Shown one piece after another: positions 9,117-14,063 of a stretch of DNA of 14,063 bases; the stretch's first letter is position 1; every line of letters begins with the position of its first letter. The position numbers and the translations under genes are program-made. The stretch lies in the IMG/VR virus record IMGVR_UViG_2693429635_000015, one strand, 5' to 3'. Source of the stretch: a virus (taxonomy: Duplodnaviria; Heunggongvirae; Uroviricota; Caudoviricetes). The notes under the pieces are model-generated. The model was not told the origin of the DNA. It was given only the letters and a program-made list of their open reading frames with translations, and made no database searches.

Positions 9117-9393
9117 CCGCAACGGCCATTTTGATATCTTCCTGGGTTCTTTGTGACTCCAGTGCGATCTGCTGTTTTGCATGCTGGTTAGCCTCCAGTA
9201 CTGTATTGACGATTTGCAGTGATTGCAGGACGTTATTGGTAATGGCTGTTGCTGATCCAGCATTTCGTTCAGCCTCATCAGCACGCTTCTTTTCGTACTG
9301 ATATTTGCTGTAGTAGTGGTTGGCTGACCAGATGAAAGAACCAATGACAGTAACGAAGAAAGCAGCGATAACCAGCTTATAGCTCAACTTCAT
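9001..9393 (-). CDS. Rz-like i-spanin (inner-membrane spanin subunit)
   Basis: 130 aa with an N-terminal TM helix (LVIAAFFVTVIGSFIW) followed by a charged, coiled-coil-like domain. Immediately downstream of the endolysin, overlapping its stop. Confidence 0.65.
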   Translation of the reverse strand: MKLSYKLVIAAFFVTVIGSFIWSANHYYSKYQYEKKRADEAERNAGSATAITNNVLQSLQIVNTVLEANQHAKQQIALESQRTQEDIKMAVADDDCASRLVPAAAAERLRKYADSLREHSDGTTASQPDG

Positions 9394-9853
9394 TTATCAC
9401 CCCACCAGCCTCTTCAAACCGTGCAATCAGGTCACCGATTTTATGTTCATACTGACCGTAACCTGCACCAGGTAATGACGCCCAGATATTGCTGCAACGG
9501 TCGATTGCCTGACGAATATTGCCACGGTCAATCATCGGTAAAGCGCCACGCTCTTTAATCTGCTGCAGAGCTACAGCGTCCTGGCTTTCTGGAGAAAAAT
9601 CTTTCAGGCCAAGCTGTTTACGGTAAGCATCCCACCAGCGTGAAAGAAGCTGGTAACGTCCGGCGGCTGTTGACTTGAGTTTCGGGTTTAGCGTGACAAG
9701 TTTGCGAGGGTGATCGGAGTAATCAGTGAAGAGTTCACCACCGACAATAACGTCATAACCGTGGTTACGTGTCGGTTGTCGTCCGTTATCCGTTCCTTCT
9801 GACCATGCCACCATATCAAGGAAAGCTTTACGCTGGGAATTTAGTACCTGCAT
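9377..9853 (-). CDS. R: Endolysin, lambda R-type lytic transglycosylase
   Basis: 158-aa product ...NSQRKAFLDMVAWSEGTDNGRQPTRNHGYDVIVGGELFTDYSDHPRKLVTLNPKLKS...RYQLLSRWWDAYRKQLGLKDF... is near-identical over long stretches to phage lambda R as I remember it, including the catalytic-region EGT motif. AAGGAG RBS upstream of the ATG at 9853. Confidence 0.9.
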   Translation of the reverse strand: MQVLNSQRKAFLDMVAWSEGTDNGRQPTRNHGYDVIVGGELFTDYSDHPRKLVTLNPKLKSTAAGRYQLLSRWWDAYRKQLGLKDFSPESQDAVALQQIKERGALPMIDRGNIRQAIDRCSNIWASLPGAGYGQYEHKIGDLIARFEEAGGVINEVEL

Positions 9854-9856
9854 AAA

Positions 9857-10183
9857 TTACTCCTTAGAGCCACCAAATTTGTTACCGATTACTCGCATTG
9901 CAGCCCCACGAATAGCATCGACACCGATCAGCCCCACCCCACCACCAATGGCAACAGAAAGTGATTTAGGCCATCCGACATACTCAAGAGCGGATGCAAA
10001 GGTCAGCGTCAGAGCGCCACATAGCAAAATCTCGAGCGTTTTTCGCTTCCAGCCACCACCACCGCCAAAATAGGCGATGCGCAAACCAGCCATAACGATC
10101 GACATAATCACTGCACCCAGCGGTGTGTCTCCACGCCACCAGCTCTGGACCAAGTCCAGCCAGGTATTTGGGTTATGAGGCAT
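9857..10183 (-). CDS. Holin (class I-like, three predicted TM segments)
   Basis: Immediately upstream of the endolysin with a 3-nt gap. Three hydrophobic segments and a charged C-terminus. I chose ATG at 10183 (GAGGT-containing RBS region); the ORF track's longer form starts at a GTG at 10279 that overlaps the methylase 3' end. Confidence 0.6.
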   Translation of the reverse strand: MPHNPNTWLDLVQSWWRGDTPLGAVIMSIVMAGLRIAYFGGGGGWKRKTLEILLCGALTLTFASALEYVGWPKSLSVAIGGGVGLIGVDAIRGAAMRVIGNKFGGSKE

Positions 10184-10225
10184 TTCGTCATCTCTCACCT
10201 CGCGATATTTGCGGGTGCTGTGTTG

Positions 10226-10254
10226 GAAATAAAAAGGCCACGCAACGTGGCCAC
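10226..10254 (-). terminator. Putative rho-independent terminator (minus strand) between methylase and holin
   Basis: Stem GGCCACG / CGTGGCC with a 3-nt loop, followed on the minus strand by TTTTTATTT. The short loop makes this moderate confidence. Confidence 0.45.
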
Positions 10255-10259
10255 CAGAA

Positions 10260-11312
10260 TTATTTCCCCACCAGTTCACTTACCTCTTTCACCGTCTGAT
10301 TAAACCGCTCTGACTCAAGTTCAACACCTAACGCCCGACGCCCCAGCGCCATTGCTGCTTTTATTGTGGAACCGGATCCCATAAAAAAATCAGCAACCAG
10401 ATCACCAGGTCGACTACTGGCATTGATTATTTGCCTGAGCATATCCGCCGGTTTCTCACACGGATGTTTACCCGGGTAGAACTGAACGGGTTTATGCATC
10501 CAGACATCGGTATAAGGCACGGAGACTGATACGGAGAAATAGCGCCGGAGAGATTTAAACTCATCCAGCAATTCAGAATATTTGCGATTCAGTGAATCAT
10601 AAGACGCCACCAGCTGGTGGTGTGGTTGTTCCAGTTGTTGTTCCTGAAACTTCTCTGCCGCTATACGGGAAAACAGTGCCTGTAACTTCCGATAGTCAGC
10701 CTCATTCGGCAACTGCCACTGACTGGCACCAAACCAGTGGGAAACCATATTTTTCTTACCTGTGGCTTCGGCAATTTGTTTTGCCGTTATACCCAGTTCG
10801 GCACGAGCATCCCTGAAATACGATATCAGCGGTGCCATTATGTGCTGTTTGAGTTCCCTTTCTTTTGCCGCATAGCCGTCACTTTTGCCGCGATATGGCC
10901 CCTGGTAATGTTCAGCAAACAGAACGCGCTCTGTGGCAGGAAAATATGCGCGCAGACTTTCTTTATTACACCCATTCCAACGTCCGGACGGCTTCGCCCA
11001 GATGATATGGTTAAGCACGTTGAAACGTTCACGCATCATGATCTCAATATCAGATGCCAGGCGATGCCCACAGAACAGGTAAAGGCTTCCGGCAGGTTTC
11101 AACACCCGCCAGAACTGGGCCAGACAGTGGTCCAGCCACTTAAGGTAATCTTCGTCCCCTTTCCACTGATTGTCCCAACCGTTGGGTTTCACCTTGAAAT
11201 AAGGCGGATCGGTAACAATCAGGTCAATGGAATCATCAGGCAGGGACTGAATAAAATGCAGGCAATCAGCGTTGATTAAATCAACACTGTTTATTTTTAC
11301 AGTATTTTTCAT
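10260..11312 (-). CDS. DNA methyltransferase (amino-MTase, beta-class motif order; probably N6-adenine)
   Basis: 350 aa with catalytic motif IV DPPY near the N-terminus (IVTDPPYF) and AdoMet-binding motif I FxGxG near the C-terminus (FFMGSGST). No adjacent restriction endonuclease gene, so it looks like an orphan phage methylase. Confidence 0.85.
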   Translation of the reverse strand: MKNTVKINSVDLINADCLHFIQSLPDDSIDLIVTDPPYFKVKPNGWDNQWKGDEDYLKWLDHCLAQFWRVLKPAGSLYLFCGHRLASDIEIMMRERFNVLNHIIWAKPSGRWNGCNKESLRAYFPATERVLFAEHYQGPYRGKSDGYAAKERELKQHIMAPLISYFRDARAELGITAKQIAEATGKKNMVSHWFGASQWQLPNEADYRKLQALFSRIAAEKFQEQQLEQPHHQLVASYDSLNRKYSELLDEFKSLRRYFSVSVSVPYTDVWMHKPVQFYPGKHPCEKPADMLRQIINASSRPGDLVADFFMGSGSTIKAAMALGRRALGVELESERFNQTVKEVSELVGK

Positions 11313-11461
11313 GGATCAGTAAGCGTAACTCTGGTAGGCTCACTCTGCTTTTGCGCTAAAGCAGTGGGCCGTGGTTCGCTTGTGACCAGTAAGCATGAGC
11401 GAATGGCTGGCAGGTGCTACCAACACCCACCAGCCGCCCATTTTCACAAATTAAAAGTCCT

Positions 11462-11656
11462 TCATTGCTGAAGGCGTCTGTAACAGCCGAACTGGTAATC
11501 TGCCAGCCCCGCCATAACCAACTGGGTCAGTATTAACTGACAGCGTTCGCGTGAAAGATATGTGTTTTGTGCAATCTCCCCGACTGTTGCCGGTTCGATG
11601 CTTAATTCATTAAAAACAACTTTCGCCGTTTCTGTCATATCTTGCTGTTTTAGCAT
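11462..11656 (-). CDS. Small hypothetical protein (64 aa), possibly HTH DNA-binding
   Basis: Within ORF 11462..11680; the internal ATG at 11656 has AAGGA 8 nt upstream. The segment TVGEIAQNTYLSRERCQLILTQL resembles a helix-turn-helix. First gene after the 11779-11804 terminator on the minus strand. Confidence 0.4.
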   Translation of the reverse strand: MLKQQDMTETAKVVFNELSIEPATVGEIAQNTYLSRERCQLILTQLVMAGLADYQFGCYRRLQQ

Positions 11657-11778
11657 GTCTTTTTTCCTTCTGGTTAACATGACATACCAATAACTCTTGT
11701 CTAAAAAGCCAGCAAGATAAAAAGTCAGTATTCACGACCACCAGCGTGTTTACCGTACTGCACCAGGTTTACAGGTAC

Positions 11779-11804
11779 AAAAAAACCCGCTCGACGGCGG
11801 GTTT
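11779..11804 (-). terminator. Rho-independent terminator (strong on minus strand, weak on plus); candidate tR'-like late terminator
   Basis: 7-bp stem AACCCGC / GCGGGTT with a 6-nt loop, followed on the minus strand by 7 T (plus-strand A run 11779-11785). On the plus strand only TTT follows. Confidence 0.6.
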
Positions 11805-11961
11805 AAGTTGTGTGGCGAAGTAACCACTCTTAACACGATATAATACTTTTTGCGTACGCGTTAACTTTTTCTGTAGTATTTAGTGTAAGATTCTTCACAA
11901 GATAGATACTTTGGAGTACATGATGTAAAGTGCTGTATGCATAAACAGTACAAAGGATATC

Positions 11962-12483
11962 ATGATGAACAAATTAGCACGCTTATTATTAACAGCAAGC
12001 TCAATTGCACCTGTTTGCGCAACTCTATTTTTTATTGGATATGTAAAAGATACGGTTTGGCTGATGCAATATAGCTTATGCGTTGGCATAGCAAGTTGGT
12101 TATTAGCAATAGGCCTGATTCAATATGCTGAGAAACAACTTGAACCTCTGACAAAAAATATTAGTTCAGTTTCTCCCGCTAACAAAGAAGTAACTAATTA
12201 TTTCTTAAGCTATTTATTCCCTCTCCTAGGAACAGACTCTATTGCTGAAAATAAAGCATATGCGTTATTCTTTTATTTGTCATTGTTATTTTACATCAGC
12301 TTTTCCGAGAACTATAACTTTAACCCAGTATTGTCACTTATCGGTTATAAATTTTACGAAGCTGAAGATGACACCGGCGTAGGTTTTGTATTGATTTCTA
12401 AATCAGTCATTACTGATATTAAAGATATCAAATTTACAGTTATTCAATTAACAGACTACACATTTCTACATGTTAAAGGATAA
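11962..12483 (+). CDS. Integral membrane protein (173 aa, ~4 predicted TM helices plus a ~60-aa C-terminal soluble tail); first gene of candidate accessory/defense cassette
   Basis: AAGGA RBS before a tandem ATG at 11962. Hydrophobic segments at roughly residues 8-28, 35-55, 80-92 and 100-115. Strongly AT-rich codon usage, unlike the flanking phage genes. Opposite strand to all surrounding phage genes. Confidence 0.65.
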   Translation: MMNKLARLLLTASSIAPVCATLFFIGYVKDTVWLMQYSLCVGIASWLLAIGLIQYAEKQLEPLTKNISSVSPANKEVTNYFLSYLFPLLGTDSIAENKAYALFFYLSLLFYISFSENYNFNPVLSLIGYKFYEAEDDTGVGFVLISKSVITDIKDIKFTVIQLTDYTFLHVKG

Positions 12484-12488
12484 TAACC

Positions 12489-13373
12489 ATGGCACTTTTT
12501 GCAGTAATAGATAATACAATTGCAACGAGAATTGTTAGAGTCGAACTTGATGCAACAGCAAGTACTTCTGTTACGGCCATTTTCCAACAACAGCGTCAAT
12601 ATTTTGAAAGTCATCATAACAATATGATACCATTCTATGCCGGTTATACACCAAAACATAGTGAGTGTTTTGAAATACAAAACTTTACTGATTCTGCACG
12701 CCTGATTGACGCAGTCAATAGGCCTACCGCCGTGCCTGTCTGGGATCCCAGCCAAATTGATATTGGTTATATTAAAGCATTATTTGTTGGTGTTGACGCG
12801 CCAGCAAACCCCAATATTATTGCGCTACAAACCTTCAACAAAAAACAAATCTTAGATACCTCAAAATCATTCTTTGGAAAGCTTTTTGCAAGCAAAACTA
12901 CCTTTAGTAAAGCTAATAGCATCGGTTTTAATGTTGATGATAAACTAGTTGCAATAATTATCAATGATACAATACGATTTAAGAGTTTCTTTAATCTAAG
13001 AAGCATTTTTGACATGTTGTCCTATTTTTCTGCTGCTACTGACCAAGAACTTAATGCATTTAGTCAACTTAGTGTATTTTCTACTCCCCAAGGTTTTGAT
13101 CTAAAATCCGTTGCAGATACAGTGATAAGAAATAAAGTAACACTAATAAATCAGACTGGGATGCTAACACCCCAAAATATGTCAAAGTTTAAATCCGAAG
13201 CTGCTAAAGTCAATTTCCCCTTACAAACCATAATAGTTGGCGGTGTTGAGAAAATTGTCATGCCTTCATCAAAAAAAGAAATAAAAGCCCTTCTTGACTT
13301 TCTTGAGGAAGACATTTGGATTTCTGGGATAAGTGGAAGACGCTTTAAATCGAATTCAAAGCGCCCAATATAA
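12489..13373 (+). CDS. Hypothetical cytoplasmic protein (294 aa); second gene of candidate accessory/defense cassette
   Basis: ATG at 12489 lies 5 nt after the upstream stop, with AAAGGA 8 nt upstream, so the two genes are translationally coupled. AT-rich, no TM segments, no motif I can assign with confidence (an R-x5-H pattern near residue 36 is noted but weak). Its stop is 21 nt from the convergent Q stop. Confidence 0.65.
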   Translation: MALFAVIDNTIATRIVRVELDATASTSVTAIFQQQRQYFESHHNNMIPFYAGYTPKHSECFEIQNFTDSARLIDAVNRPTAVPVWDPSQIDIGYIKALFVGVDAPANPNIIALQTFNKKQILDTSKSFFGKLFASKTTFSKANSIGFNVDDKLVAIIINDTIRFKSFFNLRSIFDMLSYFSAATDQELNAFSQLSVFSTPQGFDLKSVADTVIRNKVTLINQTGMLTPQNMSKFKSEAAKVNFPLQTIIVGGVEKIVMPSSKKEIKALLDFLEEDIWISGISGRRFKSNSKRPI

Positions 13374-13394
13374 CTAGAAGACAGTTAAGAATAG

Positions 13395-13742
13395 TTAACA
13401 GGCAAGAGTGCAAACAATGCCTTCAATGAAACCAAGCGATGTTTGCAACTCTTTCCTGATAGTCCCATCCGAACACTTTCTCTTCTTAGCAATGGCTCGC
13501 AATGAAATCCCTACTACAAAATGGGCTATAACTAACTCATACTCTTCTGGTTTGTACTTTCTTAATCTAGCTACGCACCCATCGATCATGAGCCCCTCAT
13601 CATCATCACACTGAATCCGGGACTTTTTGCCATGAGGTAAAAGCCCCTTGAAGCCAGCGGCTACCGGTTGCCAGTCCACTCCGCTATTGTCTGAAGCAGC
13701 CCAAGCTCCCCAACGATCCATCACTTCATACATATCACGCAT
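13395..13742 (-). CDS. Late-gene antiterminator Q (small Q class, phage 82 / DLP12 QuuD-like)
   Basis: 115 aa from the first ATG at 13742 (GGAG RBS 7 nt upstream); the ORF track's 13757 start is TTG. Contains RWGAWAA and Cys-rich motifs (CDDDE...DGC, ...CSDG) that I associate with small Q antiterminators. Position (after a DUF1364 gene, upstream of the lysis genes) fits. Confidence 0.65.
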   Translation of the reverse strand: MRDMYEVMDRWGAWAASDNSGVDWQPVAAGFKGLLPHGKKSRIQCDDDEGLMIDGCVARLRKYKPEEYELVIAHFVVGISLRAIAKKRKCSDGTIRKELQTSLGFIEGIVCTLAC

Positions 13743-13759
13743 CAACTTTCTCCACAAAA

Positions 13760-14050
13760 TCAGGCCAGCACGCCAATTGCCAGCGCACGATCGATAAAAC
13801 GAAATATCAGCTCCAGCTGGGAGCCATACTTCTCTTCAAATGCCACGGTATCCGCATGCAGCTCGTCGTGATGCTTTCTGCACAAAGGCAACACAAAGAG
13901 GTCATGCGCTTTTGTACCCATCCCACCCTGACCGTGGCCTATCAAGTGGTGGGGATCATCAGCAGGCTTTCCACAACATGCACACGGCTGTGTCTTAACC
14001 CAGCGCGTGTACTTTTCATTAACCCAGCGGCGACGTTTTGGGCGTAACAT
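13760..14050 (-). CDS. DUF1364 / YbcO-like zinc-binding putative nuclease (Nin-region protein)
   Basis: 96 aa with CxCC...HH...C..HH cysteine/histidine clusters. GGAG RBS 6 nt upstream of the ATG at 14050. Size and position immediately upstream of Q resemble ybcO of DLP12-type prophages; assignment from memory. Confidence 0.55.
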   Translation of the reverse strand: MLRPKRRRWVNEKYTRWVKTQPCACCGKPADDPHHLIGHGQGGMGTKAHDLFVLPLCRKHHDELHADTVAFEEKYGSQLELIFRFIDRALAIGVLA

Positions 14051-14063
14051 AAAAGACTCCGGC

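Follow-up and report, generated by a model that had tools for sequence, protein, structure and literature searches.

A conserved late promoter, leader and terminator unit, probably of Q21-family antiterminators, separated from its Q gene by an antisense Kiwa cassette in a lambdoid prophage

The 14,063-nucleotide (nt) stretch of IMG/VR virus record IMGVR_UViG_2693429635_000015, the whole of which is called the window here, represents the late-control region of a lambdoid prophage, with the late genes on the minus strand. We found that positions 11870-11779 of the minus strand very probably constitute a conserved late promoter/leader/terminator unit of the Q21-family antiterminators (PF06530), from which late transcription would depend on Q, and that an antisense Kiwa cassette lies between this unit and the Q gene. 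The same unit of about 95 bp stands right after the Q stop codon in relatives without any cassette and behind about 25 cassettes elsewhere, its layout fits the pR' of phage 21, which was defined by experiment, and a published transcription start in the DLP12 prophage of Escherichia coli K-12 falls on the homologous base. A preliminary description had offered two alternatives, either that the Q-dependent late promoter and a tR'-like terminator lie here with the cassette inserted between Q and its site of action, or that the segment carries the cassette's own promoter with the hairpin as its insulator. These results bear out the first. The second, which does not exclude the first, holds in part and is taken up with the cassette. 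The features to which the text refers are the following.

13395-13757, minus strand: Q antiterminator gene, Q21 family (Pfam PF06530, E = 1.5e-45)
11962-12483, plus strand: kwaA, antisense to the late strand
12489-13373, plus strand: kwaB, antisense to the late strand
11866-11870, minus strand: A-tract, UP-element-like, at -42 to -38, upstream edge of the conserved unit
11859-11864, minus strand: -35 hexamer TTAACG (family consensus yTAACG), with an 18-bp spacer to the -10 hexamer
11847-11859, minus strand: palindrome GCGTACGC (11859-11852) followed by A5 (11851-11847), in the promoter spacer
11835-11840, minus strand: -10 hexamer TATCGT (TAnnnT at -12 to -7 in 98 of 100 unique relatives)
11829-11835, minus strand: TGnTAAG block at -7 to -1, almost invariant
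11828, minus strand: predicted transcription start A (A at +1 in 84 of 100 unique relatives)
11779-11828, minus strand: predicted leader RNA of about 49 nt, composed of a 5' hairpin (11827-11812, +2 to +17), single-stranded ACAACUUAA and the terminator
11779-11804, minus strand: intrinsic terminator, tR'-like, with stem AAACCCGCCGTCGAGCGGGTTT (11804-11783, 8 pairs, 6-nt loop) and T7 at 11785-11779

Association of the unit with Q

PF06530 is the Q21 family (PMC9388147), and the window Q also matched the Q21 structures 6P18/6JNX weakly (E = 6e-4, 79 residues). A 26-nt sequence just upstream of the hairpin (GTTAAGAGTGGTTACTTCGCCACACA) was detected in more than 120 IMG/VR contigs, and each of the 108 contigs that extended far enough upstream had a PF06530-type Q, 41-100% identical to the window Q, ahead of it on the same strand. 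Thirteen loci were cassette-free, with the Q stop codon 27-38 nt before the motif, and the gap from Q to the unit was 0.5-3.8 kb in the remaining loci. The unit was always located ahead of late or lysis genes, namely the holin gene in 30EVA1, essD in DLP12, and orf47, methylase and holin genes in the window and in SfV.

Thirty-three complete E. coli genomes matched window positions 11782-13800 at 99.7% identity, including hairpin, leader, Kiwa and Q, and carried the holin gene directly past the hairpin. vB_EcoS-569R4 and PhiR40_1 contained the same small Q type with other antisense cassettes, and about 60 bp upstream of the hairpin were common with the window. Since the hairpin and about 90 bp upstream of it are present with unrelated cassettes or with none, they can be considered phage backbone tied to the Q type and not a part of Kiwa. 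The late unit (91 bp) was found in 899 of 5,426 complete E. coli genomes, K-12 included, and none of the sampled matches overlapped an annotated feature.

In the window the Q stop (13395) is 1,531 bp away from the -35 hexamer, whereas the promoter directly adjoins Q in the 13 cassette-free relatives. Only one copy of the unit is present in the window, with no second copy beside Q or inside the cassette, and Q and kwaB converge with merely 21 bp between their stop codons (13373-13395), so that no promoter can adjoin Q. The Q-adjacent promoter is the usual arrangement and no mechanistic requirement.

Promoter anatomy and start site

The segment 11806-11960 is AT-rich as previously described, with 34% G+C against 50% of the whole window. 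The relatives were collected by a second scan anchored only on the spacer element AACGCGTACGCAAAAA, through which many diverged leaders were recovered, and 100 unique sequences were counted. A was found at -42 to -40 in 85-96% of 98 unique relatives, and farther upstream the sequence varied with the cassette. The T at -35, a position outside the search anchor, was invariant. In PhiR40_1 and DLP12 the sequence TTTACA/TTTACG lies some two bases farther down, and the spacer measures 16 bp. Next to the -10 hexamer, TG at -7/-6 was present in 97 of the 100 relatives and TAAG at -4 to -1 in 93, and there was no search bias at these positions. The leader also contained CA(A/G)CTT at +19 to +24.

The hexamers named in the preliminary description, TATAAT at 11839-11844 on the plus strand and TTAACG (11864-11859) - N16 - TATATC (11842-11837) on the minus strand, do exist. 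As matches they are no better than chance: the consensus scan listed 8 promoter-like sites against 8.4 +/- 2.8 expected by chance, and both TTAACG/TATATC and TATAAT stayed below its threshold and were unlisted. The case for a promoter thus rests on the relatives and not on hexamer matches. The TATATC was disfavoured as the -10 hexamer, and TATCGT (11840-11835) was favoured by the family-wide conservation and by the K-12 start, being 7 nt upstream of the base homologous to that start. Another candidate at -17 to -12 (TATTAT in the window) was unconserved across the family, and TGnTAAGAG as the promoter's own extended -10 does not agree with the K-12 start, which falls inside it.

The TGnTAAG block might be, speculatively and by likeness to the TAAGCTG of phage 21, a candidate extended -10-like element for sigma-dependent pausing. 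If sigma re-engaged there, the palindrome would come into the "-35" position relative to TGnTAAG, which is likewise a speculation.

For K-12, the Cappable-seq table of Ettwiller et al. (PMC4782308) contains a plus-strand start at U00096.2 576452. The DLP12 prophage is arranged as quuD (PF06530), antisense nmpC interrupted by IS5, the unit, and essD. We take the offset between the two K-12 reference versions (U00096.2 to NC_000913.3) to be +777 at the DLP12 position, and with this offset 576452(+) becomes NC_000913.3 577229, which is the A homologous to window 11828 and is located 7 nt past the -10 hexamer TATGCT. As a cross-check of the offset, the adjacent strong start at 576081 likewise lands 7 nt past a TATTAT hexamer. 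This strong start (relative read score 90; DLP12 locus L126 position 4359 = U00096.2 576081 (+)) lies a short way ahead of the start codon of nmpC, but on the other strand, and is directed to the late promoter and essD.

According to the statement of Pasqua et al. that cites Rueggeberg 2013 (PMC7918800), the DLP12 lysis operon is under a phage Q-type antiterminator, so that the control would act across nmpC. The text of the term-seq supplement of PMC7815308 gave no 3' end and no essD entry in the part consulted.

Terminator

The minus-strand hairpin with a T run at 11804-11779 was confirmed, with a full run of T7. It ends about +49, with the late and lysis genes beyond it, and the terminator is kept in the relatives with variants of loop and stem. 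The preliminary description regarded it as bidirectional, for which there was no convincing support: the terminator scan called it for the minus strand alone, the tail on the plus strand is broken up (AAGTTGTG past the extended stem, or TTTAAGTT past the GC core), and no plus-strand gene of the window ends at the hairpin. It was also said to be the only such site on the minus strand. This holds from the Q stop to the first gene that follows on the late strand, an interval in which the sole other terminator-like site is a weak match inside kwaB; farther downstream, 11474-11459 and 10252-10236 were detected on the same strand.

The second strong terminator (10236-10252, minus strand) consists of GGCCACGTTGCGTGGCC and a T-run between the methylase and holin genes, and is annotated in phage SfV too. 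Late transcription must cross two terminators.

Comparison with known systems

The layout is close to that of phage 21 (OL657228 39506-39590), which has a PF06530 Q and the same order of -35, spacer element, -10, A start, TAAG-type motif and terminator before the lysis genes. The phage 21 record annotates a -35 hexamer TTGACA, a Q-binding element in the spacer (ATTGAGCA + AATGAGCA), the -10 hexamer, an A start, a pause element TAAGCTG at +2 to +8 and a terminator of which the T-run ends about +46. The leader lengths are about 46 nt in phage 21 and about 49 nt in the window. The two systems differ in Q size (162 amino acids (aa) in phage 21, 115-120 aa in the window), in the spacer element (two tandem 8-bp direct repeats against a palindrome with an A-tract), in the place of TAAG (+2 to +5 against -4 to -1), and in the distance from Q to the promoter, since the Q of phage 21 ends 6 nt before the -35 hexamer while that of the window ends 1.5 kb away.

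The alignment to DLP12, which had been proposed earlier, revealed that the unit is shared: 55 of 121 query bases, leader and terminator included, align at 96% identity, and in DLP12 too an antisense moron stands on one side of the unit and the lysis genes on the other. QuuD belongs to PF06530 and has 47% identity to the window Q. In contrast to the window, the DLP12 cassette is a porin gene interrupted by IS5 instead of a defence system, and its spacer element is TTTACGTACGTAAA, which fits Q clade 3 described below. Phage 82 was proposed together with DLP12, but Q82 belongs to a different family from Q21 (PMC9388147), so phage 82 templates are irrelevant here.

The pR' - 6S RNA - tR' region of lambda resembles the unit in having a constitutive promoter, a short terminated leader, and a Q that is loaded at the promoter and leads to terminator resistance (PMC9388147). 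It differs in its unrelated Q family (PF03589), its 194-nt leader and a promoter abutting Q. StxS/EcOnc15 of the Stx phages is comparable as a short RNA in lysogens that is an antitermination by-product (PMC7547250), though it arises by processing of a 258-nt leader that belongs to other Q types.

In SfV (U82619 33675-33710) the homologous hairpin is annotated as "putative rho-independent terminator", and window 11300-11803, from the methylase gene through the hairpin, is 97.6% identical to SfV. The homology starts at the hairpin: a Q-lambda-family Q (250 aa, PF03589) is located 107 bp upstream of it in SfV, with another promoter segment. The window is thus a recombinant, left of the terminator T-run at 97.6% to SfV and right of it at 99.7% to the 33 E. 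coli prophages. The terminator (11779-11808) serves as the mosaic joint that links Q/promoter modules to late-gene modules.

Spacer palindrome

Clustering of the Q proteins with an identity cut-off of 80% separated five main clades and the singleton Q6 with a Q4-type tail and spacer. The spacer elements were distributed among them as follows.

Q clade 1 (window included; 19 gap lengths): GCGTACGC in 40 of 40 loci
Q clade 2: GCGGTCCGC in 28 of 29 loci, GCGTTCCGC in one locus
Q clades 4 and 6: GCGGTCCGC in 13 of 13 loci
Q clade 3 (QuuD included): TTTAC-N4-GTAAA, 16 loci
Q clade 5: GTTATAAC, 12 loci

The palindrome tracks the Q clade almost perfectly, even though the promoter sequence around it, the cassettes and the late modules have been reshuffled, and the cores of clades 1 and 2 were both found on promoters with no other difference between -23 and -1. 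All Q clades have the leader and terminator in common. Such a pattern would be expected of a palindrome that is the Q-specific site with the remainder of the unit meeting the host polymerase, and we infer that the palindrome is a candidate Q-binding element. In the literature we found no biochemical characterisation of this small-Q subfamily.

Proposed mechanism and points against it

We propose that host sigma-70 RNA polymerase would initiate constitutively at about A11828 from the -35 hexamer TTAACG and the -10 hexamer TATCGT. Without Q it would stop about 49 nt on at the hairpin and T7 (11804-11779), presumably with sufficient efficiency that a lysogen yields only the short leader RNA. After induction, Q (13757-13395) would act in trans, binding the clade-specific spacer element (GCGTACGC plus A-tract) and loading onto an early, probably sigma-paused complex, which would become resistant to termination. 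The modified polymerase would then cross the hairpin terminator and that at 10252-10236 into orf47, the DNA methylase, holin and lysin genes, and beyond. Kiwa would be one of many interchangeable antisense cassettes between the Q 3' end and the promoter A-tract, placed upstream of the late promoter, facing away from it and using its own promoter. Because of this placement, late transcription should not cross the cassette.

Several observations weigh against this reading. The start signal in K-12 is weak, with a relative read score of 1.7, and this score is reportedly close to the cut-off of the Cappable-seq study. The start site was mapped in the K-12 homologue only, and the other support is comparative. 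The -35 hexamer matches the consensus in only 4 of 6 positions and stands 18 bp from the -10 hexamer. At +2 to +8, where phage 21 has its pause element, no canonical -10-like one was found, and +1 to +12 contained no TAnnnT. The spacer element is palindromic and lacks the pair of tandem 8-bp direct repeats by which the Q21 binding element is defined. Common ancestry could account for part of the co-variation between Q clade and spacer. Having been chosen by exact match to the leader, the first contig set is biased, which the second, differently anchored set corrects.

A wider joint reading would combine several of these points. Small Q21-family Qs (115-127 aa) would bind the clade-specific palindrome at about -31 to -24 as a symmetric dimer and load at a TGnTAAG pause overlapping the start, with Q acting from up to 3.8 kb off; the junction of Q stop and promoter would be a widespread dedicated landing site for antisense defence cassettes; and the constitutively produced leader of 49 nt, which about 17% of complete E. 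coli genomes carry, would itself be a regulatory RNA. As a whole we hold this combination to be possible and rather doubtful.

Leader RNA

The fold of a 53-nt RNA gave a minimum free energy of -20.1 kcal/mol (z = -4.3). Register 0 of the 5' hairpin beat every slid register, but the structure was derived from the consensus. Covariation of the 5' hairpin was not significant, as 84.5% of cells were paired against 83.9% in shuffles and the score was reached in 33 of 500 shuffles. An Rfam 15 scan of 11200-14063 with permissive filters revealed only sub-threshold matches driven by the terminator; the best scores were Leu_leader (22 bits against a threshold of 50) and isrJ (21 against 37), with P9 and Trp_leader also far below threshold. 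No open reading frame was found in the leader.

StxS is a by-product RNA of pR' that serves as a regulatory small RNA (PMC7547250), and by analogy the short leader RNA here could have a function of its own. A stronger form of this idea is that the unit is primarily the gene of a small RNA of about 49 nt that acts in trans, like those that bind Hfq, and that its conservation reflects the RNA function. The leader is indeed far more conserved than its surroundings and is common to Q clades only 41-59% identical; its fold, in which an A/U-rich single-stranded linker joins the 5' hairpin to a terminator with U7, would suit such an RNA, as would the StxS precedent and the spread of the unit among the complete E. 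coli genomes counted above. Against it stand the Rfam and covariation results just given, and the conservation reaches the untranscribed positions -12 to -1, which indicates a role at the DNA level. We consider this explanation improbable as the primary function, though it would be compatible with a late-promoter role.

Kiwa cassette and recurrent insertion site

The cassette was identified as Kiwa by PADLOC (KwaA 1.9e-83, KwaB 1.1e-149) and Pfam (KwaB 6e-7), and RefSeq names kwaA/kwaB in near-identical E. coli loci. The neighbouring kwaA and kwaB genes conform to the definition of Kiwa, in which the gene of a multi-pass membrane protein (kwaA) adjoins one with DUF4868 (kwaB). The cassette has 35% G+C against 50% of the window and extends from 11871 to about 13394, and both junctions can be located. 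The earlier view of a self-contained insertion was thus substantiated.

The promoter-side junction is the A-tract just before yTAACG, at 11870/11871. Upstream of it lies the following feature.

11871-11961, plus strand: Kiwa-specific 5' flank, 91 bp, common only to Kiwa loci and diverging from loci with other cassettes exactly at the A-tract

This flank presumably holds the kwaA promoter. By eye, a candidate is TAGATA (11903-11908) - N17 - TAAAGT (11926-11931), with a score of 8/12, and a candidate ribosome-binding site AAGGA is located at 11953-11957 ahead of kwaA. To this extent the second alternative of the preliminary description stands. Its other half, in which the hairpin insulates the cassette, does not, the hairpin being part of the late unit of the phage rather than of the cassette. 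That the whole segment is Kiwa's own control region, with kwaA promoter and insulator hairpin brought in together by the cassette, is very improbable. It would account for a flank found only with Kiwa, where a kwaA promoter is expected, and for the perfect plus-strand TATAAT at 11839-11844. But the hairpin and 90 bp upstream occur with about 25 unrelated cassettes and without any, which marks them as phage backbone, and the T-run is on the late strand. The TATAAT, which overlaps the region of the late -10 hexamer, lacks both a usable -35 and a TG motif, and relatives do not conserve it.

The Q-side junction is about ten codons before the Q stop (about 13395-13430), and the Q tails differ with each cassette (loci L002, L016, L021, L032, L041, L047, L048 and others). 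The variation of the tails with the cassette places this junction inside the Q 3' end, and the C-terminal tail appears dispensable. The 21 bp between kwaB and Q contain no hairpin, so transcripts of kwaAB probably run antisense into Q. Most other cassettes at the site have a GC-rich hairpin right past the Q stop.

The gap between Q and the promoter was occupied by about 25 cassette types, almost always antisense to the late strand and many with defence genes. Their contents included PADLOC PDC-S20 (KAP/PifA-like), PDC-S42, PDC-S54, PDC-M53A/B and PDC-M68A (HNH), two NA37 proteins, a GmrSD_N + HEPN pair with a C5 methylase, and an AAA_15/21 ATPase. The cassettes of L011, L038, L056 (313 + 153 aa), L106 (273 + 160 aa) and L059 (357 + 179 aa) had no Pfam or PADLOC match. 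The matchless two-gene antisense cassettes are composed of a small multi-pass membrane protein and a soluble protein of 270-360 aa. Considering this Kiwa-like architecture, they are candidates for undescribed defence systems.

From these comparisons of loci, antisense defence cassettes have repeatedly been inserted where Q meets the late promoter, which makes this junction a recurrent insertion site. No earlier description of a "Q to pR'" site for defence insertions was found in the literature, where the coverage of our search was incomplete.

Neighbouring genes

The other late-strand features of this region are the following.

13760-14050: DUF968/HNH gene, first in late-strand order
11657-11778, minus strand: 5' untranslated region of the SfV orf47 homologue, 97.6% identity to SfV
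11462-11656/11680, minus strand: winged-helix open reading frame, SfV orf47 homologue, 65-72 aa, first late-strand gene past the terminator
10260-11312: N6 DNA methylase gene
9857-10279: holin gene
9377-9853: lysin gene

The SfV orf47 homologue showed a weak winged-helix similarity (TrmB/DprA_WH, E about 0.005-0.008) and has its own terminator-like hairpin at 11474-11459. The segment 11657-11778 is missing at loci where the holin gene directly follows the late unit.

A Q-independent promoter with a leader attenuator for the orf47/methylase operon is hardly credible: orf47 and the DNA methylase gene, and not lysis genes, do come first past the terminator in the window, and there is a weak Rfam resemblance to amino-acid operon leaders (E = 0.15-1.9), but those scores are far below threshold, the leader lacks an open reading frame, the unit is linked to Q and not to orf47 (the holin gene or essD follows it directly in the 33 E. 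coli genomes and DLP12), and SfV has orf47 and the methylase gene behind another promoter region that belongs to a Q-lambda-family Q.

Significance

As a late promoter with leader and terminator, the unit is an ordinary kind of element; what is added here is its precise anatomy, the clade-specific palindrome as a candidate Q site, and the recurrent insertion site. Knowledge of the unit locates the start of late transcription for a large class of prophages, K-12 DLP12 included. Natural promoters that vary in nothing but the palindrome core, and do so together with the Q clade, are ready-made material for specificity swaps. The interval from the Q 3' end to the A-tract/yTAACG is a sharply bounded site which mostly contains anti-phage genes, and it is useful for the discovery of defence systems.

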